The translations under genes were made by a program, and so were the position numbers. Shown here in pieces: positions 4,956 to 59,762 of a stretch of DNA of 64,000 bases (position 1 is its first letter; each line of letters starts with the position of its first letter). The notes below the pieces were generated by a model. That model saw only the letters and a program-made list of their open reading frames with translations, did not search any database and was not told where the DNA came from. Source of the stretch: an uncultured Chitinophaga sp. (GTDB taxonomy: Bacteria; Bacteroidota; Bacteroidia; UKL13-3); NCBI GenBank assembly GCA_964355075.1, contig CAYHCF010000006.1, positions 32,821 through 96,820 on the forward strand, read 5' to 3'.

Positions 4956-5132
4956 GGGGTTTGCATTTGCAAGTTCAAAGATATAAATATTTCTGTTAAC
5001 TGAAACAATAACATATAAAAATTTTCATTATACAGAATTTTTGTTGAGTAAATAGCTCCAAATTATCAAACATTAATAGTTTGTATGTTAAATATATTCT
5101 TGTAAAATTGAAGTGGGAATTGGAGCCTATGC

Positions 5133-26550: not shown

Positions 26551-26835
26551 ATGAATTTACCTCCTCAACTTTTTTGGGATACCGATTATGAAAAAATTGA
26601 TTGGGATAAAAAATCCGAATATGTGATTTCCAGGGTATTGGATAGAGGGAGTTTAAAGGATTGGTTTGAAATAAAACGTTATTATGGAATTGAAAAAATC
26701 GTTGACGTTGTTAAAAATGCCCGATATCTATCAAAAAAAACAGTTTATTTTATGAGTAATGTTTTCGATATTCCTTTAGAAGAAATAAGATGCTACAAAT
26801 TAATGCAGTCCCAACCCGAACAATGGATATTTTGA
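26551..26835 (+). CDS. Small protein partner of the AbiEii-family gene (putative antitoxin)
   Basis: 94-aa ORF (MNLPPQLFWDTDYEKIDWDKKSEYVISRVLDRGSLKDWFEI...). Its stop overlaps the next gene's ATG by 13 nt. I recall similar small proteins (DUF6922-like) paired with AbiEii genes in Bacteroidota, but could not verify this. Confidence 0.6.
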   Translation: MNLPPQLFWDTDYEKIDWDKKSEYVISRVLDRGSLKDWFEIKRYYGIEKIVDVVKNARYLSKKTVYFMSNVFDIPLEEIRCYKLMQSQPEQWIF

Positions 26836-44296: not shown

Positions 44297-46318
44297 ATGA
44301 AAAAAATTATACCTGGGATTCCGAAATATTTAACACTGGTTTTAAAAATTGCCAGTGTTTTTTTGTTATTAGGAATTGTTGGATATTTTTCATTACGCGG
44401 CTATTTTTTGAACAAAGCAATAGAGAAGATTCAGAATAAATTAGCCATAAAATACAATACCCGACTTTGGGTGAGAGAGGCTGGTTTCAAAGGATTTACT
44501 ACCGTTTCCTTAAAAGGAATACAATTAATTCCAAATGGAAAAGATACGCTGCTTTCTGTTGATGAATTCTCATTAAGCATAAAATTTTGGTATGCGCTTC
44601 TGGCAGATATCCGGATAAATGAGGTCTCACTTAGCAATGGATATTTACAATTAGTAAAAAAAGGGAATGACAAGAACTTCGATCAGTTTTATAAACAAAA
44701 GGGTGATACGTCTTCGGTTCAATCCCAAATAAAAGAGCCACCGGATGAGGAGAAAGTAAATTATGCCAGGGTGATCTATAACCTGATTGTAAACGGGTTA
44801 AATAAAGTTCCAAATAAAGTCACCATTCATCATTTCACTTTAAAAGGAATTGATGATAACCATTTTTTGAATTTGGGAATTATTCAACTTAGTATGATTG
44901 ATAAAAAATTGAGTTCTGTAATTCAGGTTCAATCCAGTGAAGTGAACCAGCAATGGCAATTCAGTGGCTTGGCAAACCCGGGTGAGAGACAAGCGGATAT
45001 TACCTTTAGCCGTCTGGATCAGGGCAATATTGTTTTACCTTATTTGCTGGAGCGCTTCAATTTGAAAGTTGGGTTTAATTCCCTTCGTTTGCAATTGAAT
45101 AATGTCAGCTTTGATGATGATGAGTTAAGAATTAATGGAAGTGCTTCTATTGACTCCTTTATGGTGAACCACGCAAAGATTTCAAAAAGAGACGTAATGA
45201 TTCCTAAAGCTAAATTTGATTATGCCTATGTAATTGGAAGTAATTATATTTCATTGGATAGCTCTACTTCATTTGTTTTTAATGATTTCACAATACATCC
45301 TTTTATTAAATTTCAAAATGGCCCGGATACCATTTTTTATTTGAGTGTAAGGACAGAAAAAACAGAGGCGCAAAAGTTTATAAATGCCTTGCCGGAAGGA
45401 TTGTTCTCACACGTGAAAGGCATGGAAGCAACAGGAAGCTTCAGCTACAGACTTGATTTTATTTACAATGAAAATCATCCGAATGATATGGTTTTTGAAA
45501 GTAAATTGGAAAAGGATAAATTAAAAATTACCCGGTATGGGGAAGCGAACCTCAGCAAACTCAACAATGAGTTCACTTATTTACCAACTGAAAACGGCAG
45601 ATCGTTGCGACCTGTTTTTGTAGGCTTGGCGAATCCCTATTATACCCCTTTAGATCAGATTTCAACCCTACTTAAAAAAACAGTTCTAACTACAGAAGAT
45701 CCTTCATTTTACTGGCATCATGGATTTGTTACCGAGGCTTTTCGTCAATCGATCGTGAAGAATATCCGTACCGGCAGATTTAAACGCGGAGCAAGTACCT
45801 TAAGTATGCAGTTGACGAAAAATGTTTTCCTGACCCGGGAAAAAACCATTTCACGTAAATTGGAGGAAATACTGCTGGTCTTTATTTTAGAAAATAACTA
45901 TATCTGCACCAAAGACAGGATGTTTGAAGTTTATCTGAATATCATTGAATGGGGTCCTGATGTTTATGGAATAGGTGAGGCTTCTCAATTTTATTTTAAT
46001 AAGAAACCCATTGATCTTACCCTGAGCGAAAGTTTATTTTTGGCGACCATTATCCCCGGCCCAAAACATTTTATGTGGCGCTTTGGAAAAGATGGAACGC
46101 CTAAACCATTTCTTGAAAGAACCTATAGATTTCTATCCAATTTAATGATTATCCGAAATTTGCTGATACCTGAGGATACCCTTGGATTAACGCATAAGGT
46201 CGTGATTACCGGACCGGCACGAAAATACATCATCAAAAATGATTCCCTGGTTAATGATACGTTAATCGAACAGGAGCTTGAACTGCTTCATAACCCGGGA
46301 GAACGTGAAGAAGATTGA
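44297..46318 (+). CDS. Monofunctional peptidoglycan glycosyltransferase (GT51 domain) with ~440-aa N-terminal extension
   Basis: 673-aa ORF with one N-terminal TM helix. GT51 motifs occur only in the last ~220 aa: TTEDPSFYWHHGF, RGASTLSMQLTKNVFL, RKLEEILL and KDRMFEVYLNIIEWG. There is no transpeptidase domain. Confidence 0.8.
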   Translation: MKKIIPGIPKYLTLVLKIASVFLLLGIVGYFSLRGYFLNKAIEKIQNKLAIKYNTRLWVREAGFKGFTTVSLKGIQLIPNGKDTLLSVDEFSLSIKFWYALLADIRINEVSLSNGYLQLVKKGNDKNFDQFYKQKGDTSSVQSQIKEPPDEEKVNYARVIYNLIVNGLNKVPNKVTIHHFTLKGIDDNHFLNLGIIQLSMIDKKLSSVIQVQSSEVNQQWQFSGLANPGERQADITFSRLDQGNIVLPYLLERFNLKVGFNSLRLQLNNVSFDDDELRINGSASIDSFMVNHAKISKRDVMIPKAKFDYAYVIGSNYISLDSSTSFVFNDFTIHPFIKFQNGPDTIFYLSVRTEKTEAQKFINALPEGLFSHVKGMEATGSFSYRLDFIYNENHPNDMVFESKLEKDKLKITRYGEANLSKLNNEFTYLPTENGRSLRPVFVGLANPYYTPLDQISTLLKKTVLTTEDPSFYWHHGFVTEAFRQSIVKNIRTGRFKRGASTLSMQLTKNVFLTREKTISRKLEEILLVFILENNYICTKDRMFEVYLNIIEWGPDVYGIGEASQFYFNKKPIDLTLSESLFLATIIPGPKHFMWRFGKDGTPKPFLERTYRFLSNLMIIRNLLIPEDTLGLTHKVVITGPARKYIIKNDSLVNDTLIEQELELLHNPGEREED

Positions 46319-47588
46319 AAAAATTCACTATCTGTATTTTGCATTTGTTGCAGAATTGCTTCTGATATTTTATTTGAGAAATGATATGGGTTTTATTTTG
46401 AGCCCGATATTAATCTTAACTGCCGGACTCTTTTTGTCTGTTTATCCGGTTTTTTTAATAAAAGGCATACCTGTATCGAATGAAGACCGAAAAAGTGTTA
46501 TTCGAATAATCAGCAATAAAGACAAAACGCTGAACTGGATTGTATTTGCAGGTTTATCTCTTGTATTCATAGTTTGGTCGTATATATTGTTTCAGAATAA
46601 TCCAATTAATATCAGGCAATCGGATATCATACCTTTTATCAAAGAAGTTTTGGTAAAGCGGTTTTTGGCAAATGAAAATGTATATGCCCCTGTACAATTT
46701 AATGATTATGGGGTTGTATTTACGCCAAATTATTTGCCATTTCAGTGGGGACCCTTTTCAATTGCGGCCATATTGAAAATTGATTTTCGCTGGATTTATG
46801 TTTTTGCATTTTTGGGTGCAGCAGCCTACCAGAATTTTCATTTTCAAAAAAGTAAAATTGCAAAATCAAAGTTGATGGGTCTGAGTGCTTTACCTTTTCT
46901 GATCGTATTTTCAATTTATTTAAAGCAACCTGTTGATGTAGCCCATTCAATAGAAATATTAACACTTTCTTATTATTTCTTCCTTGCCACAGCTTTATTC
47001 ATTAAAAGAAATTCTGTAAAAGGTATAGCACTTACGCTTCCTTTGTTATCTCGTTATTCATTTCTGTTTTGGTTACCGGTCTATTTTTACGGTTTATGGA
47101 ATGACAATCGTAAAAAATGCATCATTACCGGATTGTTTTTTCTGGCATTTATCAGCGTATTTTTTGTAATCCCGTTTGTAATTCCCAATCCAGATTTCCT
47201 AAAATCCTTTAATAATATTTATTTGCAGGGTGCCATAAGGGAGTGGAGTGGCCAATCCTGGCAACATCCAGGAGACAAACCTTTTCAGCTATTTCAGGGA
47301 ATGGGATTTGCCAGTTGGTTTTATTGCTTTTACGAAGGCACCTTAGAAGAGAAGATTTTAGCGCTGAAATGGGTTTTGGTGGGAGTTTGTTTTTTGAGCA
47401 TGCTTATTCCAATTCTATATCATCATAAAGTACGTAAAATTATTAGCTCTGAACTTTTTGCTTTGCTATCTCTGAAGTTTTGCCTGACCTTATTTTACGC
47501 ATTTATTTTGGTACCTTACATATACCTATTCTGGATACCACTCATTGTAAGTGTAGTAATTATCAACAAAGTAAGTGTTGAACCTTAG
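46278..47588 (+). CDS. Polytopic integral membrane protein, possible GT-C-type glycosyltransferase
   Basis: 436-aa ORF with many hydrophobic segments and an acidic first-loop segment (NIRQSDIIPFIKE). The start is ambiguous (TTG 46278 or GTG 46305), and either choice overlaps the GT51 gene. Confidence 0.55.
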   Translation: MNCFITRENVKKIEKIHYLYFAFVAELLLIFYLRNDMGFILSPILILTAGLFLSVYPVFLIKGIPVSNEDRKSVIRIISNKDKTLNWIVFAGLSLVFIVWSYILFQNNPINIRQSDIIPFIKEVLVKRFLANENVYAPVQFNDYGVVFTPNYLPFQWGPFSIAAILKIDFRWIYVFAFLGAAAYQNFHFQKSKIAKSKLMGLSALPFLIVFSIYLKQPVDVAHSIEILTLSYYFFLATALFIKRNSVKGIALTLPLLSRYSFLFWLPVYFYGLWNDNRKKCIITGLFFLAFISVFFVIPFVIPNPDFLKSFNNIYLQGAIREWSGQSWQHPGDKPFQLFQGMGFASWFYCFYEGTLEEKILALKWVLVGVCFLSMLIPILYHHKVRKIISSELFALLSLKFCLTLFYAFILVPYIYLFWIPLIVSVVIINKVSVEP

Positions 47589-47674
47589 GTTTAACTTTAG
47601 TCCTTTCTAAATCCTATTCTTTTTCTGATAAGATGAGTGGTTGGTTCTACTAATTGCAATTTGAAATTATAGCT

Positions 47675-47709
47675 TTAACTTGAGGTCGCATTTTGCGACT
47701 TCAAGTTAA
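47675..47709. terminator. Perfect-looking hairpin between convergent genes (possible bidirectional terminator)
   Basis: ttaacttgaggtcgca-tttt-gcgacttcaagttaa, with ~15-16 bp arms containing one G:U-type mismatch. No long T-run on either side. Confidence 0.5.
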
Positions 47710-47761
47710 GATTAATTTGTTATCTCACGGACTGTTACCGTTTGATAATTGCCAGAAACAA

Positions 47762-48472
47762 CTACGAAGCTACAATATAAATGGACTGACTTACGGCTCT
47801 TAGCACAGGAATTCTTTCTAAAAGATCTCCAATAATAATGGAAGGCTTAACCAAACTTTCCGGAATGCCCGGAAGCAAGAAATCTCTATATGAGACCGAA
47901 ATATCAGTGAAACCAGACTGTTTTAATTCTTTGCGGATAAATGATTTACTGAATGCCATTTCATCCGGTTCAAGGTGTGCTTTTTCTCTAAAATACGGGT
48001 AGGTGAAAATTAAATGAACATAGGGGTTATAAATATTGGGTTCCCAAAAAATGATCTTCCCATTGGGCTTCAATAATTTCTTTAAATTAACCAGGGCTGT
48101 ATCCAAATGATGATACAGATGATGTAGGATGCCATTACCTACAATATAATCGAATTTCTTTTCTTTAAAGTCACCAATTTTGTTAAAATCAAGAAAATCA
48201 TATTGTAATTTTGGATGAATAAAATTCTTTCTGGCTTCCTCAATAAAGGGAACGCATAAATCGGTGCCTAATACATGCATATTGCTTTTTTGTGCGAGCA
48301 TAAATGCGATATCACCGGTACCACAACCAATCTCCAAAATAGTGCCATTCGGATCCATCTTCATGGTTTCTATCATGGCATCACATCTTCTCTCAGCCCT
48401 GATCTGCGTACTTTTACTATCTGCCCACCCCTGATTGTACCCCCTGTCGTCCTTTTTATTGTTATCGTTCAT
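47762..48472 (-). CDS. Class I SAM-dependent methyltransferase
   Basis: 236-aa ORF with motif I ILEIGCGTGDIAFMLA and post-I VLGTDL. It is the last gene of the tkt-SDR::GT2 operon, with a 19-nt spacer. Confidence 0.85.
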   Translation of the reverse strand: MNDNNKKDDRGYNQGWADSKSTQIRAERRCDAMIETMKMDPNGTILEIGCGTGDIAFMLAQKSNMHVLGTDLCVPFIEEARKNFIHPKLQYDFLDFNKIGDFKEKKFDYIVGNGILHHLYHHLDTALVNLKKLLKPNGKIIFWEPNIYNPYVHLIFTYPYFREKAHLEPDEMAFSKSFIRKELKQSGFTDISVSYRDFLLPGIPESLVKPSIIIGDLLERIPVLRAVSQSIYIVAS

Positions 48473-48491
48473 TGCAACTTATTTAACTAAC

Positions 48492-50420
48492 TCAATATGT
48501 TTTCCTATATATATTTCTTCGGATAAATTTTGGTCTGCGTTTGGTTTCCTCAAGAATTTTGGCCTGGTATTCTCCAAGAACTGAAATACCCAGCATCTGC
48601 AAGCCACCGAAAAATAAAATCAAAACAATGATAGTGGTTACCCCATGCGGATTACCCGGAAACATAAAATAAAAGATGATTTGAAGGAGAATAGCCATAA
48701 AAGAAATGATGGTTAACGACCACCCCAGATAAGTCAGCAATTCTAAAGGTACATAACTAAAGCTGAAGATTGCTTTGCGCGCCCAGGCAATATTTTTTCG
48801 CCAGTTATTGGTGGTAACGCCAAACATTCTTTCCGGACGGATATAATCTACACCGGTTTGCCTGAAGCCAACCCAGGCTCTCAGACCTCTTAAAAACTGA
48901 TCCGTTTCAGGTAGTTTAATAATTTCATTCACCACTTTTCTGTCCATCAGGGCAAAATCACCGGCATCTAATGGAATAGGTACATAACTCACACTTCTGA
49001 ATAAACGATAGAATACCTTGTAAAAAAATACCAGACTTTGCTTGCCTTCTCTTCTCACCCGACGGCCAAAAATCACATCATAACCATTCAGGTATTCTTC
49101 ATAAAAATTTTCTATTAATTCCGGTGGATCCTGCAAGTCGCCGTCAAGCAGGATAACTCCATCTCCTGTTGAGATTTCCATGCCCGATAAGAAGGCACTC
49201 TGTGAACCAAAATTCCGGGAATGTTCTATGGCAATTACATGGTCATCTTTATCTACAAGTTTTTGCAGAATCTCATTGGTATGATCGGGTGAGCAATCAT
49301 TCACGAAAATAATTTCATAATCCACAATCAGTTTTTCAAAAACCTTTGTCAAACGATCATACATAAACGGAATCGCCTCGGCATCCTTATAACAGGCAAT
49401 AACAGCCGATAATTTATGTTTGATTTTATCCTGTACCAATTTCTTTTCATACAGCGGAATAGCATAGTTTTTTTGCCAGATATACGTTTTGGAGAGTCCT
49501 TCTTTTAAGCTGGTTTCACTTTCCCAATCTATCATTTCTTTGGCTTGGGATGCATCGCCATACCACTCTTTCAAATCCCATTTTCGGTTGGGCATATCCC
49601 CCCAATGCGGATCAACTTTGAGATCAAACAAATTTTTGATTTCTGAAGCGATATCTCTAATAGTGGTTTTCTTGTTACTGGCAATATTGAGCGACCGTCC
49701 TTTGATTTTTTGAATTTGGTTTGCCGACAATAAGGTGGCCAAAATGGCATCATCAATATACACAAAGTCTCTTGAAATATCAGGCTGAACCAAAGGAGGA
49801 TAGCTTCCTTTCATTCCTTCATCAATCAGTTTCGGAATAAGTCTGTCGGGTTCTTCATAGGGTCCATAGATCGAATAGTATCTAAGATTGGTGACCGGCA
49901 TTTCCTTCAGCGTTCCATAATATTTAATCATATGAGCTGCACTCACTTTTGTTACAGCATAATGAGAGTTTGGCAAGAACGGATCATTTTCTTTTGGAGC
50001 AGATGCATTGAGTCCATATTCTGAAGAACTACCGGCATGTACAAACGCATGAATGGCATATTTGGATGAGATTTCAAGAACATTTAAAAAGCCCATCACA
50101 TTGGTTTCATAAATCAATTCAACATCATTCTGCTTACTGTAAGCACCATAGGCTACCAAATCGAAAACGGTTCTGAATGAATGCGCATCAAATAATTTTC
50201 CTACCTGTTCTCTTTTTGTAATATTACAATGTAAAATGTATTGTGGATTTATATCATCCAGGCGCCAGGGAATAAATGGCTTGCTGGTCACTGCGAAAAT
50301 ATCTTGTCTGTAATTAAGAATAGTTCTTACAAGATTGGATCCCATAAAACCTCCGGCTCCAAACACCACAATAGGGCCCTGTAGCTTTAATACCTCGGTT
50401 TTTATTTTTTCGCTAGTCAT
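48492..50420 (-). CDS. Fusion protein: extended-SDR NAD-dependent epimerase/dehydratase (N) + GtrB/ArnC/DPM1-type polyprenyl-phosphate glycosyltransferase GT2 (C)
   Basis: 642-aa ORF. The N half has the Rossmann motif VVFGAGGFMGSNL, GSSSEYG and the catalytic YAVTK. The C half has VIACYKDAE, FVNDCSPD and LDGDLQDPP, then two C-terminal TM helices ending LGISVLGEYQAKILEETKRRPKFI. Confidence 0.85.
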   Translation of the reverse strand: MTSEKIKTEVLKLQGPIVVFGAGGFMGSNLVRTILNYRQDIFAVTSKPFIPWRLDDINPQYILHCNITKREQVGKLFDAHSFRTVFDLVAYGAYSKQNDVELIYETNVMGFLNVLEISSKYAIHAFVHAGSSSEYGLNASAPKENDPFLPNSHYAVTKVSAAHMIKYYGTLKEMPVTNLRYYSIYGPYEEPDRLIPKLIDEGMKGSYPPLVQPDISRDFVYIDDAILATLLSANQIQKIKGRSLNIASNKKTTIRDIASEIKNLFDLKVDPHWGDMPNRKWDLKEWYGDASQAKEMIDWESETSLKEGLSKTYIWQKNYAIPLYEKKLVQDKIKHKLSAVIACYKDAEAIPFMYDRLTKVFEKLIVDYEIIFVNDCSPDHTNEILQKLVDKDDHVIAIEHSRNFGSQSAFLSGMEISTGDGVILLDGDLQDPPELIENFYEEYLNGYDVIFGRRVRREGKQSLVFFYKVFYRLFRSVSYVPIPLDAGDFALMDRKVVNEIIKLPETDQFLRGLRAWVGFRQTGVDYIRPERMFGVTTNNWRKNIAWARKAIFSFSYVPLELLTYLGWSLTIISFMAILLQIIFYFMFPGNPHGVTTIIVLILFFGGLQMLGISVLGEYQAKILEETKRRPKFIRRNIYRKTY

Positions 50421-50430
50421 ACAAAAAAAA

Positions 50431-51345
50431 TTAATATTTAAAAAATTGTTCTAAAGCCATTTTTAATGGTTCTCCCGCCAATTGATTTTCTTCCTGATGC
50501 CATTTCTGATCACCGTAATTACCCGAAGGATATCCATGTGCACATAAGGAATGAACCTGCAAATTATCCGGATCAATACATGGATTTTTTAATAGTTGTA
50601 AGGCCAATAATTCCCCGATTCCACCTGCTTCATAATGTTCTTCTATGGTAAGAATCTTATGAGTTTGATTGATATCATTAATCAATTCCTCAGGGAACCC
50701 TACGAGAGGAATCTGTCCAATTGCCCAGATAGAAAGATTCAAATTCAATGTTTCATTTAGTTGATATGCATTTATAATAACCGGCCCAATTCCAATGAGC
50801 ACTCCTTTTGTTCCCTTTGTCAATTGTCGGAATGGCGCAAATGGCATAGCGGATTCAGCGCGTTTGATACTGTTATTTAATCGCAGATAATTGGGTCTTT
50901 TATCTAGCACCATTTGTTGTACTGCTTCGGCCACATCTTCATTAAAAACCGGGGCATAGATCTGCATATTTTGAACGGAACGCATGAGGGCAATATCTTC
51001 TAAGCAATGGTGGGTTGATCCCATAATTCCATATCCATAGCCACCCCCGTTACCAATAATTTTTACAGGCAGATTATGAAGCCCCAACTCATTTCTAATT
51101 TGTTCAAAGGGCCTGTTTACTACAAATGGAGCAATGCTATAAACAAAAGGCATAAAACCATCATAGGCTAAAGATGCGGCCACTGAGATCATATTTTGCT
51201 CTGAGATGCCCATATTTACAAAGCGTTCTCCCATAACCCCTTCAAGTTCTTCAAATGCCATAAACCCTAAATCTCCTGTTAAAAAAACAAAAGACGGATG
51301 GGTTTCAGCCAGATTAAGAAGCGATTCTGATAATTCTTTTCTCAT
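50431..51345 (-). CDS. Transketolase-family protein, C-terminal half (pyrimidine-binding + C-terminal domains)
   Basis: 304-aa ORF with FLTGDLGF, FVNMGISEQNMISVAASLA and GSTHHCLEDIALMR. Confidence 0.9.
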   Translation of the reverse strand: MRKELSESLLNLAETHPSFVFLTGDLGFMAFEELEGVMGERFVNMGISEQNMISVAASLAYDGFMPFVYSIAPFVVNRPFEQIRNELGLHNLPVKIIGNGGGYGYGIMGSTHHCLEDIALMRSVQNMQIYAPVFNEDVAEAVQQMVLDKRPNYLRLNNSIKRAESAMPFAPFRQLTKGTKGVLIGIGPVIINAYQLNETLNLNLSIWAIGQIPLVGFPEELINDINQTHKILTIEEHYEAGGIGELLALQLLKNPCIDPDNLQVHSLCAHGYPSGNYGDQKWHQEENQLAGEPLKMALEQFFKY

Positions 51346-51351
51346 GAATTC

Positions 51352-52146: not shown

Positions 52147-52267
52147 CAGTTAATTAAAAAATTTCATGACTTGTTGTATATAAGTCTGAAAATATAATAA
52201 TTTATGCAGAATAAACAAAAGTAGATTTATTCTCAGATAATTTATTTCTTCGTACATTCGATGTAGA

Positions 52268-53860
52268 ATGAAAACAATAAGCAAAAATAGTTATCTCCCT
52301 ATATGGATCGGGTTCATTTATGTTGTAATTTGTTTTTTACCCATTCTAAAAAGCGGGCTTTATTCCGATGACCTGCCTAATTTTCAATTCAAAACCTATC
52401 AACCCAAAGTTAAGAATGAAAATGCGATTCAACTTGCTCTGCCAGCTATTGAGACCTGGAAATCGGCCGGGCGTTTCACTCCGGTTTCTTTTTTCTGGAT
52501 GGAGTTTGTTTTTAAAAATGTAAGCACCATTAAGAACTACAAATTAATGATATTTATATTAAATATTATGACCGTAATTATTTTCCTTATCTACTTGCGG
52601 GCCCTTAGAGTAAAAATAAATTACGGTATTTGGCTGATATGTTTCGGTTCGGTAATACAATACCGTATTGAATTTCATGATGCCTATACGAGTTTAAATG
52701 GCATGTATCAGGTATTGGCCATTTTTATATTTGCTAGTTTAATACTCCATTGTTATTACCTGATAAAGAGGAAAATGTGGCTTTTGATTTTGTCGGCTAT
52801 TTGTTTTGTTATCAGCATGTTGATTTCTGAAGTGGGATTGCTGGCGTTTTTCTTAGTCCCGTTTTCTGCTATCATTCTGAAAATACCATTTAGAAAATTC
52901 TGGCGCAGTTTTAACCTGTACCTTATCCTGTTCATGAGTTATCTTGCTTATGTTTTCTGGCTTCGGTATCATGTACAAGATAAGGATGTATATATAGGAC
53001 TTAAAGCTGGTTTTGATTTATGGGCAATGGGAGAACTATTGGTGAAACAACTTTATGCCACACTGCCATTAACAAATCTGCAGGATAAATCGGCCATTCC
53101 CATTGTGCTTTTTCACCAATTCACTGACCTAAAAAACCTGTTAGGTGTGATTGCTATGTTTCTGTTGGGATATCTGGCTTTTCGGAGCTATCAATTACAA
53201 CCGAAAAAAGAAGAAAAATACTTTAATTTTGCTCACCTGTTCCTTTTTGGTGCCATTCTGGTATTTCCCGCCTTATTTATTTTACCATCATTAAAATACC
53301 AGCAGGAGGTTAGGTGGGGGGTAGGATATTTGCCGGTTTATATACAAAATTTCGGAACAGCAACTTTGTTCACCTGTCTGTTTGAGTACGGTTTTCATAA
53401 TTTGAAAAGGTCAGGTTCCGTATATTCAACTGTTTTTTTTATCTTTATTGTTTTCAGTACATCCATTAATTTTTTGTTTAACCATGCTTTGATAAATACG
53501 ACTTCTTATAAAATTAGTTTTCCGGCTCAAGTGCTTTATGACAGCGTGAAAGAAGGGATTTTAAAAAATTGCGATGACGGAAGTACGATAATTCTTGGCA
53601 ATGATTTTTATTATAAATCTCCGGAATCTTACCATTTACTTTTTAAGGAGATTACCGGTAAGGATTTTAAAGTGGTTGATGCAGGCACAAATTTTACCAT
53701 GTCCGATTCTTCCCTTTGTTATTATTTAGATTGTAAACCCGGGAAAAAGGTAGTGGTTTCCCTTTACAGATTGAAGGGTTCAGACAACCAGACAAAAGTG
53801 CTAAATAAAAAATTTGAAAGGGATTGTAACATAGATGTAATAAAGGAAGACGGTATTTAG
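52268..53860 (+). CDS. Polytopic integral membrane protein, possible GT-C-type glycosyltransferase
   Basis: 530-aa ORF. The first ~400 aa are almost entirely hydrophobic segments, with an acidic first loop (GLYSDDLPNFQF). The last ~130 aa form a soluble domain. Confidence 0.55.
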   Translation: MKTISKNSYLPIWIGFIYVVICFLPILKSGLYSDDLPNFQFKTYQPKVKNENAIQLALPAIETWKSAGRFTPVSFFWMEFVFKNVSTIKNYKLMIFILNIMTVIIFLIYLRALRVKINYGIWLICFGSVIQYRIEFHDAYTSLNGMYQVLAIFIFASLILHCYYLIKRKMWLLILSAICFVISMLISEVGLLAFFLVPFSAIILKIPFRKFWRSFNLYLILFMSYLAYVFWLRYHVQDKDVYIGLKAGFDLWAMGELLVKQLYATLPLTNLQDKSAIPIVLFHQFTDLKNLLGVIAMFLLGYLAFRSYQLQPKKEEKYFNFAHLFLFGAILVFPALFILPSLKYQQEVRWGVGYLPVYIQNFGTATLFTCLFEYGFHNLKRSGSVYSTVFFIFIVFSTSINFLFNHALINTTSYKISFPAQVLYDSVKEGILKNCDDGSTIILGNDFYYKSPESYHLLFKEITGKDFKVVDAGTNFTMSDSSLCYYLDCKPGKKVVVSLYRLKGSDNQTKVLNKKFERDCNIDVIKEDGI

Positions 53861-53875
53861 AGTCTGCACTTAGTA

Positions 53876-54586
53876 TTAATCGGCTTTAAACAGACCGTAT
53901 TTAAATATGCAATAAATAGCCCGCAACCCATCTTTCCAGTTTATTTTTTTTCCCTCTTCATAGGTTCTTCCATAATAGGAAATGCCTACTTCATATATCC
54001 TGACTTTGGGAATTCTGCTGATCTTTGCGGTAACCTCGGGTTCAAAGCCAAATCTCTTTTCTTTCAGATGAATGCTTTTTATCATATCTGATCGGAACAA
54101 CTTATAGCAGGTTTCCATATCTGTTAAGTTTAAATTGTTAAACATATTTGACAAAAAGGTTAGAATATTGTTACCGATAGAATGCCAGAAAAACAGGATT
54201 CTATGAGGGTTTCCGCCAATAAACCTGGAACCATAAACGATATCGGCAAATCCATCCAAAACAGGTTTCAGCAAAATATTATATTCATTGGGGTCATATT
54301 CCAAATCAGCATCCTGAACAATAATAAAATCTCCACTGGCCTCTTTTATGCCGGTATGTATAGATGCTCCCTTACCCATATTTATATTATGTTCCACATA
54401 TTTAATATAAGGTTTTGATTCCATCTGATTTAAGATAATTTCTTTGCTGTTATCTGTGGAATAATCATTAACGATAATTATTTCTTTTTCTAAATCTCCG
54501 ATTAAATTTACCGCACCAACTTTGTCTAAAATCCGGTGAATGGTTCTGGATTCATTATAAACCGGTATGATTATGGATAATTTCAT
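53876..54586 (-). CDS. Glycosyltransferase family 2 (soluble, DPM1/Ppm1-like)
   Basis: 236-aa ORF with [30 protein letters not shown] and ETCYKLF. I see no TM segment. Its start lies 2 nt after the stop of the upstream 582-aa membrane-protein gene. Confidence 0.85.
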
Positions 54587-54588
54587 CT

Positions 54589-56337
54589 TTAATTTAGTTG
54601 ATATTGTTTTTTAAAGGTAGTTATTGTTACATGTTCAGCTTTAGCAGCAAAATCCCCATCGGAATGAATAGACAAATTAAATTTTGATGAAAAAAAATAG
54701 GTCGGAACCCTGACATAAAATGCATATTGATTCATTTGGTTTGCTTGGGTTAATGGGTTCAATACCCGTATTTTGTTATGTTTAACGGAATCTCCGTATT
54801 GCAAATTTGAATGAAGGGTAGCATTTACCCAGGATTCAAGTTTAAGCGTTGTTTCAATCTTTAGCCAAAATTCGGTCTCAGAATTAAATCCCGGTTTCTT
54901 GTCAAGATTCACTTCTGCTATGGTTTGAGAGGAATCAGCAGTTAATTTTATATTGATAAGCGAATCCCTCTGGAAAATAATTTCTTTCTGATAATTCCTT
55001 TCATTACTGATCCATTCGTCGGTATCCAGCAAGCTCAAATCAAGGGGAGTTGGATCATTATTTAAATAAATTCTTTGATAATATTGTCGGTTCATATCAT
55101 AGTAATGCAAGATCATTTTATTGTACTGCTTGATTTGAAACAGGTTTACTCCAATCAGATAGAGTCCAATCAGATAAAATAAATAGCTATATTTTTTTGA
55201 GTTGATTTTATGAATAATGGAAGCCAGCGGAAGTGCAAACATCGGGTAACTTTGAACCAATGCCCTGGTTGAATAGCTGCCGCCATATCTCCAATCGGCC
55301 CAGGAAATAATTATATAAATATTAAGCAAACAGAAATAAATAACAGATTTTTTGAAAGGATACTCCTTCATAAAAAACATGCCGACAATAAACAAAATAG
55401 TAACGGAAGTATAAATAAACCAACCTTTTTCCCAACCAAATAATACCCTGAAAAATGGATTTAAAAAATACCATTTACTGCCAACATCATATATATAGGA
55501 ACCTGTAGTTATTTTCCAGTAAATAAGTTGTGGTAGTATTCCTATTATACCGAACAAAATAACGAATCCAATTTGATTTTTATGTTTCTTTACTAATTCC
55601 CATTTTTTGGTAGCTTGTTCTTTGGTATGCGTATTCCACATTAATGGAATAAACAACATGATGGCCTCAGTGGGTCGGCCAATGGTTGCCAGTCCGATAA
55701 TGAATCCACAGATGGAGGCGTCAAGGAAGCTTGGTTTATGATGCCATCGTATCGTAAAATAAATGATTAGCACATATAAAAAGAAAAGAGGGGCATGACT
55801 TTGTCCGTTATCAATAGCGGCATATTGAATGGCATTCGTTGCCAGTACCAATAGTAATAAAGTTATACTGCTGGTAGAATCACTGAAATAATTTAACAGA
55901 ATTTTACGCAACAAAAATATAGCCAGAATGAAATAGAATAAAATCCCGAATGAGACTGCATATTGGTAGGGAGGAGAAAAACCATCAGGAGGGTAATCAC
56001 TGATATGGGCAATTATATGGCCAATAATAAAAAACGGTAATTGCAAAATGGCAATTCCACCTAAGTATTTAAAAACAAAATTTCCGTTTTCCAGTCTGGA
56101 GGCTTGATATATTTTCCCGCCGGAAAGAGAATAAGTACTGTCAATAGCAGGTAGCCATTCTAATTTGGAAACGTCATGGTAAATAAATACAGCAGGCAAA
56201 TACATATAATAACCCAGCGCATCCCATGTTGTAATTTTCAGCGTTTTATCGGAACCCATTCCTGAATATATAATCCGGTACTGAATAAGCAGGATGCCAA
56301 TAATTATGCAGGAAATAAATGAATATTTATTTTTCAT
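54589..56337 (-). CDS. ArnT/PMT-like (GT-C fold) membrane glycosyltransferase candidate
   Basis: 582-aa ORF with ~12 hydrophobic segments in the first ~420 aa, the first-loop motif [13 protein letters not shown], and a C-terminal soluble beta-rich domain. A promoter match lies at 56394-56424. Confidence 0.6.
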
Positions 56338-56393
56338 GACTCATTCGGCATTAAAAGGGAATCAGATTCTGTTCTTATCCGACACACTCTTGT

Positions 56394-56424
56394 CAAACAT
56401 AATCATTTTTGTAAAATCTGCAAA
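56394..56424 (-). promoter_or_regulatory. Bacteroidota sigma-A-type promoter match (TTTG-N19-TATGTTTG) for the GT-C/GT2 operon
   Basis: On the minus strand, TTTG is the complement of 56421-56424 and TATGTTTG the complement of 56394-56401, ~57 nt upstream of ATG 56337. Confidence 0.45.
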
Positions 56425-56486
56425 ATGCATGGAAAGAGAGAGAAATTGGATTTATTGAGCTTTTCTTTAATCATATTCAAAGAAAA

Positions 56487-56494
56487 TATTTTTG
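56487..56494 (+). promoter_or_regulatory. Isolated -7 box match (TATTTTTG) upstream of the DUF2079-like gene
   Basis: TAnnTTTG match 58 nt upstream of ATG 56552, with no convincing -33 TTTG at the expected spacing. Confidence 0.3.
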
Positions 56495-56551
56495 GACATC
56501 GTAATTGAATTGATATGTTTGTATTCAACTTGGTTTACGTATAAAGGTTCT

Positions 56552-58057
56552 ATGATGATTCGGGAAAAGTCTGTTTCATGCGCCAAAATTGCCAAAGGTT
56601 ATTACCTGGTCATGTTATTTTTTGCGTGTGTATTTTGTTTGGTATCATTTGTGAATCATTACCAGTTCAGAACCTATTCATTTGATCTGGGACTGTATAA
56701 TCAGGCCATTTTTGATTATTCTCATGGAAGATTGAATCAATCAACTTTACTGGAACCTGATTTTCACCAGAGAAATCAACTGGCGGATCATTTCGATTTG
56801 TGGCTGATTTTAATTTCCCCGCTTTATTATATTTTTGGTAATTCTACCCTTTTGCTGATTCAAATACTCGCCATTCTATTTGGCGGTTTGGGTATTTCAA
56901 AATCAACTGAAACATTTAGTAACAATAAATGGATTCCCTTTCTCGCAATGATTCATTTTTTCAGTTTGTGGGGAATCTATGCTGCTCTGTCATTTGATTA
57001 CCATAGCAATGTAATCGCAGCCATGTTTGTGCCCTGGCTATTTTATTTTTTGCAACGAAATAAAAGCATTCCTGCTGTATTGATGTTTGTTTTAATTCTT
57101 ATTTGTAAGGAAAATATGGCGCTTTGGGCTGTGTTTATAGGCAGCGGTTTTGCATGGTATTACAGAAAGGATAAGTTGAAAAGAAATTTATGCCTGGGCC
57201 TTATGTTTTTTGCCATCCTGTATTTTGTTCTGGTAATGAAAATTTTTATGCCATCTTTTTCCATCGATAGCCAAAAATACATTCATTTTGACTTTAAGGC
57301 CTTAGGTTCAAATTTCATGGAAGCGATACAAACTATTCTGCAAAGGCCAATTTACGCGGCATCCCTGTTATTTGAGAGTCCGTATATTCAGCATGAAACC
57401 TATTGGATTAAAACAGAATTGTTTTCTTTTATTTTATTATGTGGAGGTTTTGCCCTGTTTTTTAATCCTGCATTTATATGGATGCTATTGCCCATTTTGG
57501 GTCAAAAATTGTTTAATGACGATTTCACCAAATGGGGAATTAATCACCAATATTCGATTGAGTTTGCACCCATACTGAGCCTGGCGTTATTTATCTGGAT
57601 TACTCAGATAAAATACAATAATAAAGTTAAAATAGCCCTGATTATGATAGCCATTACAATAGCTATGACTATCAAAGGTATGCAATCGCGTATCTCAATT
57701 TGGTATGATGAAAAGGATGAAAATATTTTCTGTATGAAACATTATCAAAGAGCCTTTGATATTAAAGAAATTCATAAGGTAATCAAACAGATCCCACCTG
57801 AATATTCTGTGAGTGCAAGTAGCACTCTGACGGCTCACCTGGCCGGACGAAAGCAAATTTATCAGTTTCCTTATATAAATAATGCTCAATTATTGTTGCT
57901 GTTAGCTGAGCCTGAAAGTTATTATCCTTTATCTGAAAGTGAATTCAAAACAAAATTTGTTGCGCTTCAGGCTGATAGCAACTATGTTTGCACGCTAAAT
58001 CACAATCCATTTTATATTTTTGTGAGGAAGGATGTTTCGTTTTCTGTAAAGGATTGA
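56552..58057 (+). CDS. DUF2079-like polytopic membrane protein (predicted GT-C-type)
   Basis: ORF 56492-58057. ATG 56552 is preferred because a TAnnTTTG box overlaps the TTG start. The motif YSFDLGLYNQAIFDYSHG recalls DUF2079. The protein has many TM segments and a C-terminal soluble domain. Confidence 0.6.
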   Translation: MMIREKSVSCAKIAKGYYLVMLFFACVFCLVSFVNHYQFRTYSFDLGLYNQAIFDYSHGRLNQSTLLEPDFHQRNQLADHFDLWLILISPLYYIFGNSTLLLIQILAILFGGLGISKSTETFSNNKWIPFLAMIHFFSLWGIYAALSFDYHSNVIAAMFVPWLFYFLQRNKSIPAVLMFVLILICKENMALWAVFIGSGFAWYYRKDKLKRNLCLGLMFFAILYFVLVMKIFMPSFSIDSQKYIHFDFKALGSNFMEAIQTILQRPIYAASLLFESPYIQHETYWIKTELFSFILLCGGFALFFNPAFIWMLLPILGQKLFNDDFTKWGINHQYSIEFAPILSLALFIWITQIKYNNKVKIALIMIAITIAMTIKGMQSRISIWYDEKDENIFCMKHYQRAFDIKEIHKVIKQIPPEYSVSASSTLTAHLAGRKQIYQFPYINNAQLLLLLAEPESYYPLSESEFKTKFVALQADSNYVCTLNHNPFYIFVRKDVSFSVKD

Positions 58058-58072
58058 TTTTATTTGTTAACC

Positions 58073-59041
58073 ATGTTTACATCGCCGCAGATTTCTTTTG
58101 TGATTCCGCTCTATAATGAGGAGGAAAATTTTGATGCGCTTATCGCACGTTTAAATCCTATTATGGATTCATTAAACAAGCTTTGTGAAGTGGTTTTGGT
58201 TGACGATGGCAGCAAGGATTTAACCCCTTTAAAAGCTGGCAATCTTGCGCTTTCCGATTCAAGATATCAGGCAGTTTTTCTTTCCCGCAATCACGGACAT
58301 CAATTGGCATTAAGTGCCGGGTTTAAAATGGCAACGGGCACCGAAGCAGTCATGGTTCTGGATGGTGATTTACAAGATGCTCCTGAGATGATTTTTGAAA
58401 TGTTGCTCAAAATGAATGAAGGCTATGAAGTGGTTTATGGGGTGAGAAAAAACCGCAAAGAATCCTGGATAAAAAAATTGGCATATTTTTCTTTTTATCG
58501 TTTGATCCAAATGCTGGCAAAGATTGATTTGCCACTGGATTCGGGAGATTTTGCACTTTTAAGCCGCAAAGTTGTGGATTACCTGAACCAAATGCCTGAA
58601 CAAAACAGATACCTGAGAGGAATGCGCGCCTGGGTTGGTTTTAAGCAAATTGGCATCCCTTATGAAAGAAGTGAAAGATATGCCGGAAATACCAAGTATT
58701 CCTTTCGCAAACTACTGGATCTTGCCTATTGTGGAATTTTTAATTTCAGTGATTTCCCGATTAAATTTATCACACGCTTAGGAATAACAACCATTTTGAT
58801 TTCGTTATTTTACCTGGTATATGTTTTGATTTCGAAATTTTTCTACCAGAATGTCCCCACCGGATTTACAGCCACCTTTATGGCTATCGTATTGTTTAGT
58901 GGTGTCCAACTTATATCTCTCGGCATCATCGGAGAATATGTTTTGAGAATATACCAGCAAAGTCAAAATCGACCCTTATTCATTATTGATAAAGTAATAA
59001 AAAATAAAACCCTTCATAATGGACAAGAACTATTATCTTGA
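58073..59041 (+). CDS. GtrB/ArnC-type polyprenyl-phosphate glycosyltransferase (GT2 with two C-terminal TM helices)
   Basis: ORF 58064-59041, with ATG 58073. It has ISFVIPLYNEE, LVDDGSKD, VLDGDLQDAP and the C-terminal LISLGIIGEYVLRIYQQSQNRPLFII. It is clearly paralogous to the C half of the 642-aa fusion. Confidence 0.85.
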   Translation: MFTSPQISFVIPLYNEEENFDALIARLNPIMDSLNKLCEVVLVDDGSKDLTPLKAGNLALSDSRYQAVFLSRNHGHQLALSAGFKMATGTEAVMVLDGDLQDAPEMIFEMLLKMNEGYEVVYGVRKNRKESWIKKLAYFSFYRLIQMLAKIDLPLDSGDFALLSRKVVDYLNQMPEQNRYLRGMRAWVGFKQIGIPYERSERYAGNTKYSFRKLLDLAYCGIFNFSDFPIKFITRLGITTILISLFYLVYVLISKFFYQNVPTGFTATFMAIVLFSGVQLISLGIIGEYVLRIYQQSQNRPLFIIDKVIKNKTLHNGQELLS

Positions 59042-59762
59042 GTATTATGAGCTTGAGCGAACCAATTGGTGGTTTAGAGCAAGGCAGGAAATAATCAGGT
59101 CACAGATCGTAAAATTATTTGGCAACAGAAGGGATTTATCCATTTTGAATATCGGAGTGGCAACAGGTGCTTCCAGTATCATGTTACAGGAATTTGGAAC
59201 CGTGAAATCAATAGAATACGACCCTGATTGTTATCGGTTTGTGAAAGAAAATGTGGATATTGACATAGAACCGGGTTCAATATTGGAACTTAGATTTAAA
59301 GCAAATTCATATGATCTGGTATGTTCATTTGATGTGATTGAACATGTTGAAGATGATAAGCTGGCAGCAACTGAAATGATGCGGGTATGTAAGCCCGATG
59401 GGTTTGTTTTTGTTACGGTTCCGGCCTTTATGAGTTTATGGAGTCATCATGATGAGGTTAACCACCATTGTCGCCGTTACCGAATGAACGAATTGAAATC
59501 CTTGTTTATTTCTTCAGGCCTTATTCAATTTTATTCTTATTTTAATTTTTTATTGTTTCTTCCGATTTATTTAATCCGAATCCTGAGCAAAATATTTCCT
59601 GTAATGTTTAAGCGCGAAGGCTCGGGTTCTGATTTTGGCATGTTTAAATCAAAAAGTTTAGATTCAATTTTACATAAATTGTTTATATTGGAGAAAGTCC
59701 CGTTAAAATTTGGAATAAAATTCCCATTCGGGGTCTCCGCGCTCCTGATCTGGAAAAAATAA
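59019..59762 (+). CDS. Class I SAM-dependent methyltransferase
   Basis: 247-aa ORF with motif I ILNIGVATGASSIMLQE and a later DLVCSFDVIEHVEDD. It overlaps the GT2 gene by 23 nt. Confidence 0.8.
   Translation: MDKNYYLEYYELERTNWWFRARQEIIRSQIVKLFGNRRDLSILNIGVATGASSIMLQEFGTVKSIEYDPDCYRFVKENVDIDIEPGSILELRFKANSYDLVCSFDVIEHVEDDKLAATEMMRVCKPDGFVFVTVPAFMSLWSHHDEVNHHCRRYRMNELKSLFISSGLIQFYSYFNFLLFLPIYLIRILSKIFPVMFKREGSGSDFGMFKSKSLDSILHKLFILEKVPLKFGIKFPFGVSALLIWKK

Follow-up and report, generated by a model that had tools for sequence, protein, structure and literature searches.

What does a split transketolase do among genes for lipid-linked sugar transfer, and do the genes around it form one system? 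The question is raised by positions 46278-59762 of a 64,000-nucleotide stretch of DNA (the window; GenBank assembly GCA_964355075.1, contig CAYHCF010000006.1, positions 32,821 to 96,820 of the forward strand) from an uncultured Chitinophaga sp. of the Bacteroidota. A preliminary description, made from the letters of the window, had read this region as a single envelope-glycosylation island of twelve consecutive genes: three candidate polyprenyl-phosphate-sugar synthases of glycosyltransferase family 2 (GT2), four membrane proteins resembling glycosyltransferases of the C fold (GT-C), a split transketolase (TK) and two methyltransferases. The implied logic was cytoplasmic sugar tailoring, loading onto a lipid phosphate and transfer outside by GT-C enzymes, and that logic fits the parts that were found. 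The unity of the island did not hold. The region is a mosaic, in which a distinctive and conserved TK module lies beside generic GT2 plus GT-C modules that can be swapped from one lineage to another. The use of lipid-linked monosaccharides for glycosylation in the periplasm is well known from Gtr, Arn, Pgf and mycobacterial arabinan and mannan synthesis, and most of the island belongs there; a conserved module in which a polyprenyl-phosphate glycosyltransferase is coupled with a specialised split enzyme of the TK kind has not been described before, and the split TK probably builds an unusual envelope sugar.

The core module consists of the two TK halves (TK-N and TK-C), a fusion of a short-chain dehydrogenase/reductase (SDR) with a GT2 domain (SDR::GT2) and a methyltransferase (MT1). 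The other genes encode the polytopic proteins M530, M436, M582 and a DUF2079 protein, the GT2 enzymes GT2s and GT2b and a second methyltransferase, MT2 (Table 1). All twelve open reading frames (ORFs) lie where they had been placed (ORF map; 11 coordinate pairs listed). The spacers of 6, 10, 19 and 2 nt, the 23-nt overlap of GT2b with MT2 and that between M436 and the GT51 gene upstream of it follow from the ORF coordinates, each motif that had been quoted was found in the translations, and the domain calls were borne out by profile searches with Pfam and NCBIfam. One start was revised: the 436-aa ORF assigned to M436 (46278-47588) is present, but gene calling puts its most likely start at 46305, giving 427 aa. 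For the DUF2079 gene, 56552 is most likely the start, as had been assumed. As also claimed, Pfam and NCBIfam found no Wzx, Wzy, Wzz, initiating phosphoglycosyltransferase, ABC exporter, GtrA or nucleotidyltransferase among the twelve genes, and no dedicated flippase (GtrA, ArnE/F or MATE) lies between 46278 and 59762 (ORF map and Pfam). The intergenic gaps are all below 220 nt and therefore leave no space for a further gene. The machinery of a Wzx/Wzy- or ABC-dependent locus was not found by Pfam in the twelve proteins or their immediate flanks, and the view that this is not a classical O-antigen or capsule locus stands.

For analysis of the split TK, residues were mapped by alignment to the split TK of Carboxydothermus (6yak/6yaj) and to human TK, and alignment columns were counted over 53-63 orthologues. 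These structures were also the best matches in the PDB (TK-N, the split TK N chain 6yak, 4.7e-46; TK-C, 6yaj, 1.7e-27). The catalytic apparatus is retained. In TK-N, H31, H62, H95, H245 and the S-D-G...N motif for thiamine diphosphate (ThDP) and Mg2+ are invariant or near-invariant among 53 orthologues; TK-C retains the cofactor-activating E49, H112 and R2, of which E49 and H112 are invariant or near-invariant among 60-63 orthologues. The ThDP/Mg2+ motif, the activating Glu and the catalytic His of a transketolase are thus all present. The acceptor pocket, in contrast, has changed. The acceptor phosphate ligands of canonical TKs, human S345, H416 and R474, correspond to M29, G100 and N157 of TK-C, and human E423/D424, of which D424 reads the acceptor C2-OH, correspond to I107/M108. 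When the sugar-phosphate ligands R318, S345, H416 and R474 were considered together with D424, only the equivalent of R318 remained. The replacing residues are essentially invariant across the 60-63 orthologues, whereas both genuine TKs in the alignment retain the ligands that TK-C replaces. The alignments thus point to a TK-like enzyme that keeps its catalytic apparatus but in which the acceptor pocket has been remodelled and the ligands for sugar phosphates replaced. Scores against the NCBIfam transketolase model (PRK05899.2-5) were 206 bits for the N half and 87.6 bits for the C half, with a cut-off of 488 bits; the model describes the full-length enzyme, for which lower scores of the halves are expected, but the sum of both halves is still under 488.

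The extent of this pocket pattern was examined by an exhaustive search of 1.84 billion representatives, which returned 514 clusters at E<=1e-30, the top 150 of which were inspected; the TK-like class comprises at least 150 clusters at 50% identity. All alignable members of the top 150 (33-58% identity) have the non-canonical pocket: Gly occupies the H416 site in all except two, the Glu-Asp pair never occurs and Arg is never found at the R474 site. We are therefore dealing with a large distinct subfamily, not with a decaying gene. [quoted passage not shown] In an Actinoplanes exopolysaccharide cluster reported in 2026, a split TK lies beside a methyltransferase and two DegT genes and was assigned no function (PMC13390465). 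Searches of the literature in which transketolase was paired with polyprenyl, GT-C, ArnT, O-antigen or GtrA returned no characterised example and no TK coupled to a polyprenyl-phosphate GT2.

The composition of the module was then established by comparison of loci. Species-representative genomes were scanned with the fusion protein, and the 80 loci obtained were searched by tblastn with every window protein and their ORFs clustered. Nearly all are from Chitinophagales, among them Taibaiella koreensis and Terrimonas sp. R1, which are in culture, and the closest relatives of the window are uncultured Bacteroidota/Chitinophagales metagenome-assembled genomes. A conserved order was found, comprising TK-N (53 of the 80 loci, in each of which it adjoins TK-C), TK-C (63), SDR::GT2 (80; 64-84% identical across the loci), an additional methyltransferase with a transmembrane (TM) tail, c4, inside the module (37), and MT1 (55, downstream of the fusion). 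A same-strand polytopic protein of ~600-700 aa usually lies 3' of the module. The commonest of these is c5 (28 loci), which combines a PMT_2 match with TPR repeats. Sufficient flank was available for 49 TK loci: c5 is found downstream on the same strand in 22 of them, and 44 have a polytopic protein of 400 aa or more within ~5 kb, a count that takes in the major facilitator superfamily (MFS) transporter c7, without which 2 of the 44 would have none. The architecture of c5, PMT_2-like plus TPR, is shared by the eukaryotic TMTC protein O-mannosyltransferases. On the other side of the module, a YfcE-like phosphoesterase, c6, is frequent, and an MFS transporter often lies 5' of it (15 loci). The window has no copy of c5, c6, c7 or a further cluster, c18.

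The other genes of the island behave differently. Among the 80 loci, M436, M530, GT2s, M582, GT2b and MT2 were confined to those of the three closest relatives (L003, L043 and L047), and there in rearranged form: M530 orthologues are confined to L043 and L047 and that of M582 to L047, GT2b and MT2 are not in L043, and a gene for an extra polytopic protein of 626-635 aa is inserted in L003 and L047. The DUF2079 gene was not detected by tblastn in any of the 80 loci. In Hymenobacter sp. DG25A (L082) and on a 3.25-Mb JGI contig (L083), members of the GT2s, GT2b and M436 families occur as a group and no TK is present, and distant M436 homologues, which adjoin ArnC-like GT2 genes, lie among GT2 enzymes 43-74% identical to GT2s or GT2b, together with methyltransferases and other GT-C genes. 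The region is thus a mosaic, because the core module alone is conserved while the remaining genes are rearranged and some of them occur elsewhere without a TK. Of the genes claimed as one system, TK-N, TK-C, SDR::GT2 and MT1 alone co-occur widely, and M582-GT2s and DUF2079-GT2b-MT2 look like two generic modules. The statement that the combination matched no described system holds for the TK-SDR::GT2-MT module, but not for the remaining modules, which are of a known kind. In L083 (8001-12052; also in L084), an M436-family GT-C gene was seen in an apparent operon with genes for a 305-aa GT2, an acetyltransferase (GNAT) and an aminotransferase (DegT); the layout resembles that of Arn and suggests that an acetamido sugar is linked to undecaprenyl phosphate (Und-P), and a GT2s-like/PMT_2 pair and a GT2b-like gene lie a few kilobases away.

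Six distant members of the TK subfamily, on contigs of 30% to 58% GC, were sampled for their genomic context. Two of them, L089 and L090, have TK-N, TK-C, SDR::GT2 and a methyltransferase in that composition, with components 37-45% identical to those of the window and MT1 again following the fusion. In L091, the TK is accompanied by a small GT2 and a DUF2304 membrane protein and lies beside LptD/LptFG, and in L092 the TK pair is followed by a GtrA-family flippase. L088 has an NTP-transferase, TK-N, TK-C and an SDR, with DegT, FdtA and a 4,6-dehydratase-like SDR close by, whereas L087 has an aldo-keto reductase (AKR) ahead of TK-N and TK-C in a locus with a Bac_transf phosphoglycosyltransferase, CapD-type enzymes and several glycosyltransferases. 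All six contexts are therefore glycan loci, and polyprenyl-phosphate-sugar machinery is present in four of the six, as well as in the window. The SDR of L088 was compared with the fused SDR domain and is not its orthologue. L089 also carries a second, different split ThDP pair (3208-5405, minus strand; E1_dh, 204 aa, and Transket_pyr, 197 aa) adjoining an SDR, a DegT aminotransferase and a NUDIX gene, giving two ThDP systems in one glycan locus.

The glycosyltransferase to which the TK is joined was characterized together with the two other GT2 enzymes of the island. In the fusion, an extended SDR of the epimerase/dehydratase type (~17-320) precedes a GT2 domain of the GtrB/ArnC/PgfS type (~335-640) with predicted TM helices at 561-579 and 597-615, a C-terminal pair by hydropathy. 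The best PDB match of the GT2 domain was GtrB sll0501 (5ekp, 2.3e-63, query 8-311/315), followed by ArnC (5.6e-32), and the NCBIfam scores were 239.8 bits for PgfS and 134.8 bits for ArnC. For the SDR domain, PDB matches were to GalE-type and uronate 4-epimerases and to 4,6-dehydratases, all at ~1e-25; an attempt to class it as epimerase, dehydratase or decarboxylase from its GSSSEYG ... YAVTK motifs gave no assignment, the alignment register being ambiguous. GT2b resembles the fused domain, with GtrB sll0501 (5ekp, 1e-74) and ArnC (6e-47) as PDB matches, PgfS (252.2 bits) and ArnC (166.8 bits) as NCBIfam matches and C-terminal TM helices at 239-257 and 272-290 (hydropathy). GT2s is of the soluble kind: no TM helix was predicted from hydropathy, its best PDB match was an archaeal dolichyl-phosphate mannose synthase (DPMS; 5mlz, 1.3e-17, 1-230/236) over the full length, and NCBIfam returned AglJ (1.6e-27, 96.7 bits) and PpgS (3.5e-14, 52.8 bits).

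The DXD motifs LDGDLQDPP, LDGDLQDAP and QDADLEYDP are present in the translations of the three enzymes, each of which has a GT-A domain, full-length homology to GtrB, ArnC or DPMS, and either the C-terminal TM pair of GtrB (two enzymes) or the soluble DPM1-like form. The claim of three candidate polyprenyl-phosphate-sugar synthases thus agrees with these data, and by homology all three are assigned as polyprenyl-phosphate glycosyltransferases. None reached the NCBIfam equivalog cut-offs (PgfS 500, ArnC 529, AglJ 325 and PpgS 370 bits), and the scores lie so far under them that the enzymes belong to the class and not to a named orthologue group. GT2s, a candidate polyprenyl-phosphate hexose synthase, is 69-74% identical to homologues in Hymenobacter sp. 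DG25A and the JGI contig, where a PMT_2 GT-C also adjoins it; it is far more conserved than its GT-C neighbours, suggesting a core polyprenyl-phosphate hexose synthase of Bacteroidota. GT2b is 61% identical to a GT2 of the JGI contig and 43% to one of Hymenobacter. In Hymenobacter a GT2-MT pair has the same arrangement as GT2b-MT2, with a methyltransferase 30% identical to MT2. Hydropathy gave a single TM segment in MT2 (175-193). MT2 was considered as a relocated c4; this was not established, since the hidden Markov model match is weak (27 bits) and about the same as that of MT1.

Four polytopic proteins had been proposed as GT-C-type transferases. Neither M530 nor M436 has a match in Pfam or NCBIfam, and all their homologues (34 clusters among 5.8 billion for M530, 100 clusters for M436) are named 'hypothetical', so both were modelled with AlphaFold (AF2). 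The M530 model (pLDDT 90, pTM 0.91) gave GT-C proteins as all of the top 14 PDB matches in Foldseek (PglB at 5e-5, STT3, DPY19, ALG9, Pmt4 and AftA; E 5e-5 to 3e-2, TM-score 0.29-0.43). The M436 model (pLDDT 93, pTM 0.93) likewise gave GT-C proteins as all of the top 18 (STT3 at 1.4e-2, AglB, PimE, PIG-U, ArnT, ALG9 and AftB; E 1.4e-2 to 1.4) and was closest in size and TM-score (up to 0.47) to PimE and PIG-U. D34 and D35 in the first loop of M530 are invariant in 30 sequences, as are R69, Q131, D138 and E188 in the family; in M436, S106-D107 is nearly invariant, with D107, in the large loop after TM2, at least 90% conserved. The TM-scores are modest (0.29-0.47), and the GT-C assignment therefore rests on the uniform match lists and the conserved loop acidic residues. 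A GT-C fold is thus predicted by the models for two families formerly known only as 'hypothetical', and the expectation of a GT-C fold with first-loop acidic residues was borne out for both. M530 is a candidate, on its modelled fold, for the transferase of the core module in this lineage.

M582 was recognised by sequence, scoring 28.3 bits with PMT_2 (Pfam cut-off 26.1); an NCBIfam putative-glycosyltransferase family (LA_3751/LA_3752) matched at 2.5e-10, under its cut-off, and a sequence search of the PDB gave no match. It has a large first loop with WDALGYY, seen in this single sequence, and a soluble C-terminal region of ~150 aa. The DUF2079 protein has at least eight TM helices and a first loop containing FDLGLYNQAIFD, with a loop-1 Asp in FDLGLY, again from a single sequence. 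For this protein the PDB sequence search returned no match and a literature search on DUF2079 no papers. We take DUF2079 to belong to the GT-C clan of Pfam. Of the four assignments, those of M582 (PMT_2), M530 and M436 (models) stand, and that of the DUF2079 protein is presumptive, based on its Pfam match and the loop-1 Asp. No significant sequence link was detected among M436, M530, M582 and the DUF2079 protein, or from them to c5 or c18, by c5/c18 hidden Markov models, pairwise BLAST or hhalign; the polytopic proteins of the window are separate families, united only by fold comparison. A functional tie between M436 and the overlapping GT51 gene was also considered and rejected: the adjacency is kept in the four closest genomes, and distant M436 homologues are not beside GT51. 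An M530-family homologue (29% identity) was observed in L085 (8001-9596; also L086) within a nuo operon, between the 2Fe-2S_thioredx (NuoE-type) and Complex1_51K (NuoF-type) genes, an arrangement seen on many contigs.

The reading that we prefer, and for which we consider the balance to be even, is that the island is made up of three or more independent modules for glycosylation in the periplasm, all of Gtr/Arn/Pgf type, and that in one of them the sugar loaded onto a lipid phosphate is methylated and ThDP-modified. What follows on the carrier lipid, the transfer of a C2 unit, the sequence of steps, the flippase and the acceptor is inferred. In each module, a GT2 of GT-A fold at the cytoplasmic face would make a polyprenyl-phosphate monosaccharide, which would be flipped and transferred by a GT-C to an envelope acceptor, whether lipopolysaccharide (LPS), another glycan or protein. 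In the core module, the SDR domain, or another enzyme, would oxidise a nucleotide sugar to a keto sugar, and the TK-like enzyme, presumably still catalytic but with an acceptor pocket that would no longer bind sugar phosphates, would attach a C2 ketol unit to a sugar in keto or aldehydo form, nucleotide- or lipid-linked. Alternatively, the SDR may reduce a ketone formed by the TK step, a role that is equally plausible because AKR or free SDR partners occur in other lineages. One or two methyltransferases would methylate the product, the fused GT2 domain would load the sugar on Und-P, a flippase other than the products of the island would move it across the membrane and a neighbouring GT-C would deliver it (M530 or M436 here; PMT_2 plus TPR or another polytopic family elsewhere). 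Oxidation, ketol addition, reduction and methylation could instead come after loading, with the lipid-linked sugar as the substrate. From the other two modules simpler sugars would be expected, in one case methylated.

Several observations weigh against this scheme. No flippase (GtrA, SMR or MATE) was found in either the island or the Chitinophagales core module, and no nucleotidyltransferase or stand-alone 4,6-dehydratase, so that the starting nucleotide sugar is not indicated. The SDR domain is nearest to 4-epimerases, which release no keto product, and the redox partner of the TK varies by lineage (fused SDR, free SDR or AKR). In six loci SDR::GT2 has no TK nearby, and the fusion can therefore act without an adjacent TK. 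The GT-C near the core module differs in family from locus to locus, and the genes for M530 and M436 run opposite to the operon; because the partner is variable and the strand differs, the pairing of M530 or M436 with the core operon is unproven, and one M530 homologue lies inside a nuo operon. Support for every member comes from sequence, gene context and models. A broader proposal is held more tentatively, as somewhat likelier to fail than to stand: the split TKs with the remodelled pocket may form a large uncharacterised class of ThDP enzymes making C-C bonds on nucleotide- or polyprenyl-linked sugars, the branched or extended and often methylated products being exported as Und-P monosaccharides and attached by GT-C enzymes. 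This would be a route to higher-carbon or branched sugars in primary cell-surface glycans, which has so far been hypothesised only for a few Streptomyces antibiotics.

The individual steps have counterparts in characterized systems. The logic of a GT-A enzyme, a flippase and a GT-C is established for Gtr and Pgf glycosylation (PMC12041528), and that of a lipid-linked donor and a GT-C for pentofuranose side chains (PMC11127046). With Gtr (GtrA, GtrB and a Gtr* GT-C; in Gram-positive bacteria CsbB/GtcA/YfhO and GtrB/PgtC2), the window shares a GtrB-type GT2 and a polytopic GT-C and, by implication, transfer of a single sugar at the outer face. It differs in having no GtrA-family flippase, in an SDR-GT2 fusion that shares its operon with methyltransferases and a split TK-like enzyme, in GT-C partners from unannotated families and in implying a heavily tailored sugar rather than glucose. 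Pgf of Streptococcus mutans (PgfS, PgfE and PgfM1/PgfM2) shares an epimerase-type SDR, a GT2 and at least two GT-C proteins per locus (PMC12041528); the window scores about half of the equivalog cut-off, has the SDR fused to the GT2, comes from another phylum and gives no indication of the acceptor, and Pgf itself has neither TK nor methyltransferases. The Arn system (ArnA/B/C/D/E/F/T), which places 4-amino-4-deoxy-L-arabinose (L-Ara4N) on lipid A, shares SDR tailoring, an ArnC-like GT2 and a PMT_2/ArnT-like GT-C, and a PF01522 deacetylase lies near the island; the window lacks the aminotransferase, the formyltransferase and the small multidrug resistance (SMR) flippase, is below the ArnC and ArnT equivalog thresholds and has a TK and methyltransferases in addition.

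The pentofuranose systems (GT136; Citrobacter youngae O1/O2) share a lipid-linked monosaccharide, an optional SDR-type epimerase and a GT-C with a C-terminal soluble domain (PMC11127046), but their synthase is of the UbiA type, dependent on phosphoribosyl pyrophosphate (PRPP), and not a GT2, a MATE gene is in the locus (here ~11 kb away) and no TK is present. The split TKs of miharamycin and amipurimycin biosynthesis in Streptomyces lie beside an oxidoreductase that is presumed to supply a keto sugar, with C2 ketol transfer to a sugar carbonyl proposed (PMC12247030); those enzymes, likened here by description only, act on nucleoside-antibiotic intermediates, whereas the present context is an envelope glycan with a polyprenyl-phosphate GT2. 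Mycobacterial PpgS/Rv3632/Rv3779, which put galactosamine (GalN) on arabinogalactan, and the archaeal and eukaryotic DPMS resemble GT2s as a short soluble GT2 directly beside a GT-C, but their equivalog cut-offs were not reached and no small membrane activator was found in the window. The TK, small GT2 and DUF2304 membrane protein of L091 were compared with the PpgS/Rv3632 layout; Rv3632 is presumably a member of the DUF2304 family.

Four other explanations were weighed against the preferred one of separate modules. It is quite improbable that all twelve genes form one integrated pathway, in which four GT-Cs act in sequence with three lipid-linked donors to build and attach one complex glycan of the envelope. 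The tight packing with short spacers would suit such a pathway, as would the recurrence of multi-GT2/multi-GT-C clusters in Hymenobacter L082 and in L083/84, where the homologues of GT2s and GT2b are 43-74% identical; but these distant clusters lack a TK, the four-gene TK module alone is conserved among the 80 loci and the remaining genes differ by gain, loss or rearrangement in the three closest relatives (DUF2079 in none, M582 only in L047). Three of the four phosphate ligands and the C2-OH-reading Asp are replaced throughout the TK subfamily and kept in both true TKs, the pair is operonic with SDR::GT2 at a spacing of 6-10 nt and is conserved in 53-63 of the 80 loci, six of six distant contexts are glycan loci and the NCBIfam cut-off is missed widely, all of which makes it very improbable that the split TK is an ordinary pentose-phosphate enzyme or a supplier of a sugar phosphate (e.g. 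xylulose-5-P) for a nucleotide-activated alditol or ketose phosphate. That reading draws on the nearest solved structures, which are a bona fide split TK and human TK, on the complete retention of cofactor and catalytic residues, on the service of split TKs in central metabolism in many anaerobes and on the L088 pair, which lies directly after an NTP-transferase gene.

The two remaining explanations concern the acceptor. A modification of lipid A or the LPS core as in Arn, in which the fusion makes an Und-P-linked modified pentose or hexose that an ArnT-like GT-C attaches, with effects on surface charge or antimicrobial-peptide resistance, is improbable. It would account for the ArnC-like GT2 enzymes (ArnC in the PDB at 6e-32 to 6e-47) and the PMT_2/ArnT-family GT-C, for an SDR fused to a GT2, which recalls the decarboxylase of ArnA, for the deacetylase at 62698-63318 that is kept in L003 and L043, for the position of the L091 TK-GT2 module beside LptD/LptFG and for the M436 homologue in an operon with GT2, GNAT and DegT. 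The window, however, has no ArnB-type aminotransferase, formyltransferase or ArnE/F, both GT2 scores for the ArnC equivalog are low (134.8 and 166.8 versus 529 bits), an efflux pump separates the deacetylase from the island and the commonest partner GT-C elsewhere has TPR repeats, which points to a protein acceptor. Those repeats, in a protein that like M582 matches PMT_2, favour instead a protein O-glycosylation of the Pgf/PMT type, in which GT-C enzymes would move sugars from Und-P to Ser/Thr residues of proteins in the periplasm or outer membrane. Both TM-bearing GT2 enzymes score best with PgfS in NCBIfam, the fused epimerase-like SDR parallels PgfE and the best fold matches of M530 are oligosaccharyltransferases and DPY19. 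Against this, the PgfS equivalog is missed (240 and 252 versus 500 bits), no acceptor protein or sequon was identified and fold likeness within the GT-C superfamily does not tell acceptors apart; we regard this explanation as unlikely, though of some weight.

If the TK of the preferred scheme acts on the loaded sugar, many environmental Bacteroidota would carry a branched or chain-extended methylated envelope sugar, and a family annotated "transketolase" would be one of glycan-tailoring enzymes. It would also offer hundreds of natural candidates for ThDP-dependent carboligation on ketone acceptors, a reaction sought in biocatalysis, compared with 13 Streptomyces sequences (PMC12247030). The cultured carriers T. 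koreensis and Terrimonas sp. R1 make genetic and chemical testing feasible.

Table 1. Features of the island and its surroundings, with positions in the window unless another locus is named
Feature	Coordinates	Strand	Basis and remarks
TK-N, N half of split TK-like ThDP enzyme, 264 aa	51352..52146	-	Transketolase_N 2.4e-25; core module
TK-C, pyrimidine-binding and C-terminal half, 304 aa	50431..51345	-	Transket_pyr 1.6e-24; core module
SDR::GT2 fusion, 642 aa	48492..50420	-	Pfam: Epimerase 8e-40, Glycos_transf_2 1.8e-26; anchor of core module
MT1, soluble class I S-adenosylmethionine (SAM) methyltransferase, 236 aa	47762..48472	-	Methyltransf_12/25/11 1e-18 to 2e-15; last gene of core operon
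M530, polytopic, 530 aa	52268..53860	+	Divergent from TK operon; GT-C fold by model
M436, polytopic, 427-436 aa	46305..47588 (ORF opens 46278)	+	Convergent with MT1; overlaps upstream GT51 gene
GT2s, soluble DPMS/AglJ/PpgS-like GT2, 236 aa	53876..54586	-	Glycos_transf_2 6e-32; downstream gene of M582 two-gene operon
M582, PMT_2/ArnT-like polytopic, 582 aa	54589..56337	-	PMT_2 2.5e-6; 2 nt upstream of GT2s
DUF2079 polytopic protein, 501 aa	56552..58057 (ORF opens 56492)	+	DUF2079 8e-52; first gene of plus-strand unit
GT2b, GtrB/ArnC/PgfS-type GT2, 322-325 aa	58064..59041	+	Glycos_transf_2 1e-24
MT2, class I SAM methyltransferase, 247 aa	59019..59762	+	Methyltransf_11 1e-13; overlaps GT2b by 23 nt
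Divergent intergenic region with two Bacteroidota-type promoter-like motifs (TTTG-N19-TAnnTTTG)	56394..56521	.	Pattern search
Promoter-like motif TTTG-N19-TATGTTTG	56394-56424	-	Pattern search; faces M582
Second promoter-like copy	56491-56521	+	Pattern search; just 5' of 501-aa DUF2079 start 56552
Hairpin with 17-bp stem	47674..47710	+	Terminator scan; gap between convergent M436 and MT1
GT51 peptidoglycan transglycosylase	44297-46318	+	Long N-terminal region with weak DUF748 (AsmA-like) match; 3' end overlaps M436 start
PF01522 polysaccharide deacetylase	62698-63318	+	Just past HlyD/OEP efflux pair; same position in L003 and L043
Hexapeptide acyltransferase	33259-33801	+	Overlaps MatE gene
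MatE transporter	33788-35260	+	~11 kb from island; EamA directly after
EamA transporter	35261-36148	+	Directly 3' of MatE gene
dnaA	24978-26447	+	Pfam: Bac_DnaA, DnaA_N, Bac_DnaA_C
AbiEii-type toxin-like gene	26790-27407		After dnaA
c5 example (locus L002)	12349-14352		Weak PMT_2 plus C-terminal TPR repeats; also in 27 other loci
c6, YfcE-like Metallophos_2 phosphoesterase (locus L002)	6872-7384		Same strand as and directly 5' of TK-N; 27 loci

Regulatory signals were sought by pattern and terminator scans. The TTTG-N19-TATGTTTG match that had been proposed as a promoter is present; its value as a promoter is weakly supported, because the number of matches across the window (4) equals the chance expectation (4.2). 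The hairpin between the convergent M436 and MT1 genes is likely a bidirectional terminator.

The island is bordered by housekeeping genes or genes unrelated to it: gltX, frr and the GT51 transglycosylase, then the HlyD/OEP efflux pair and the deacetylase. The family of the latter, PF01522, is that of ArnD and NaxD, which deacylate Und-P-linked sugars. The MatE gene is possibly a candidate, though a distant one, for the missing flippase of the island, and is counted as such because a MATE protein is the flippase of the GT136 three-component systems. Further away, the presence of dnaA indicates that a chromosomal replication origin is probably nearby.

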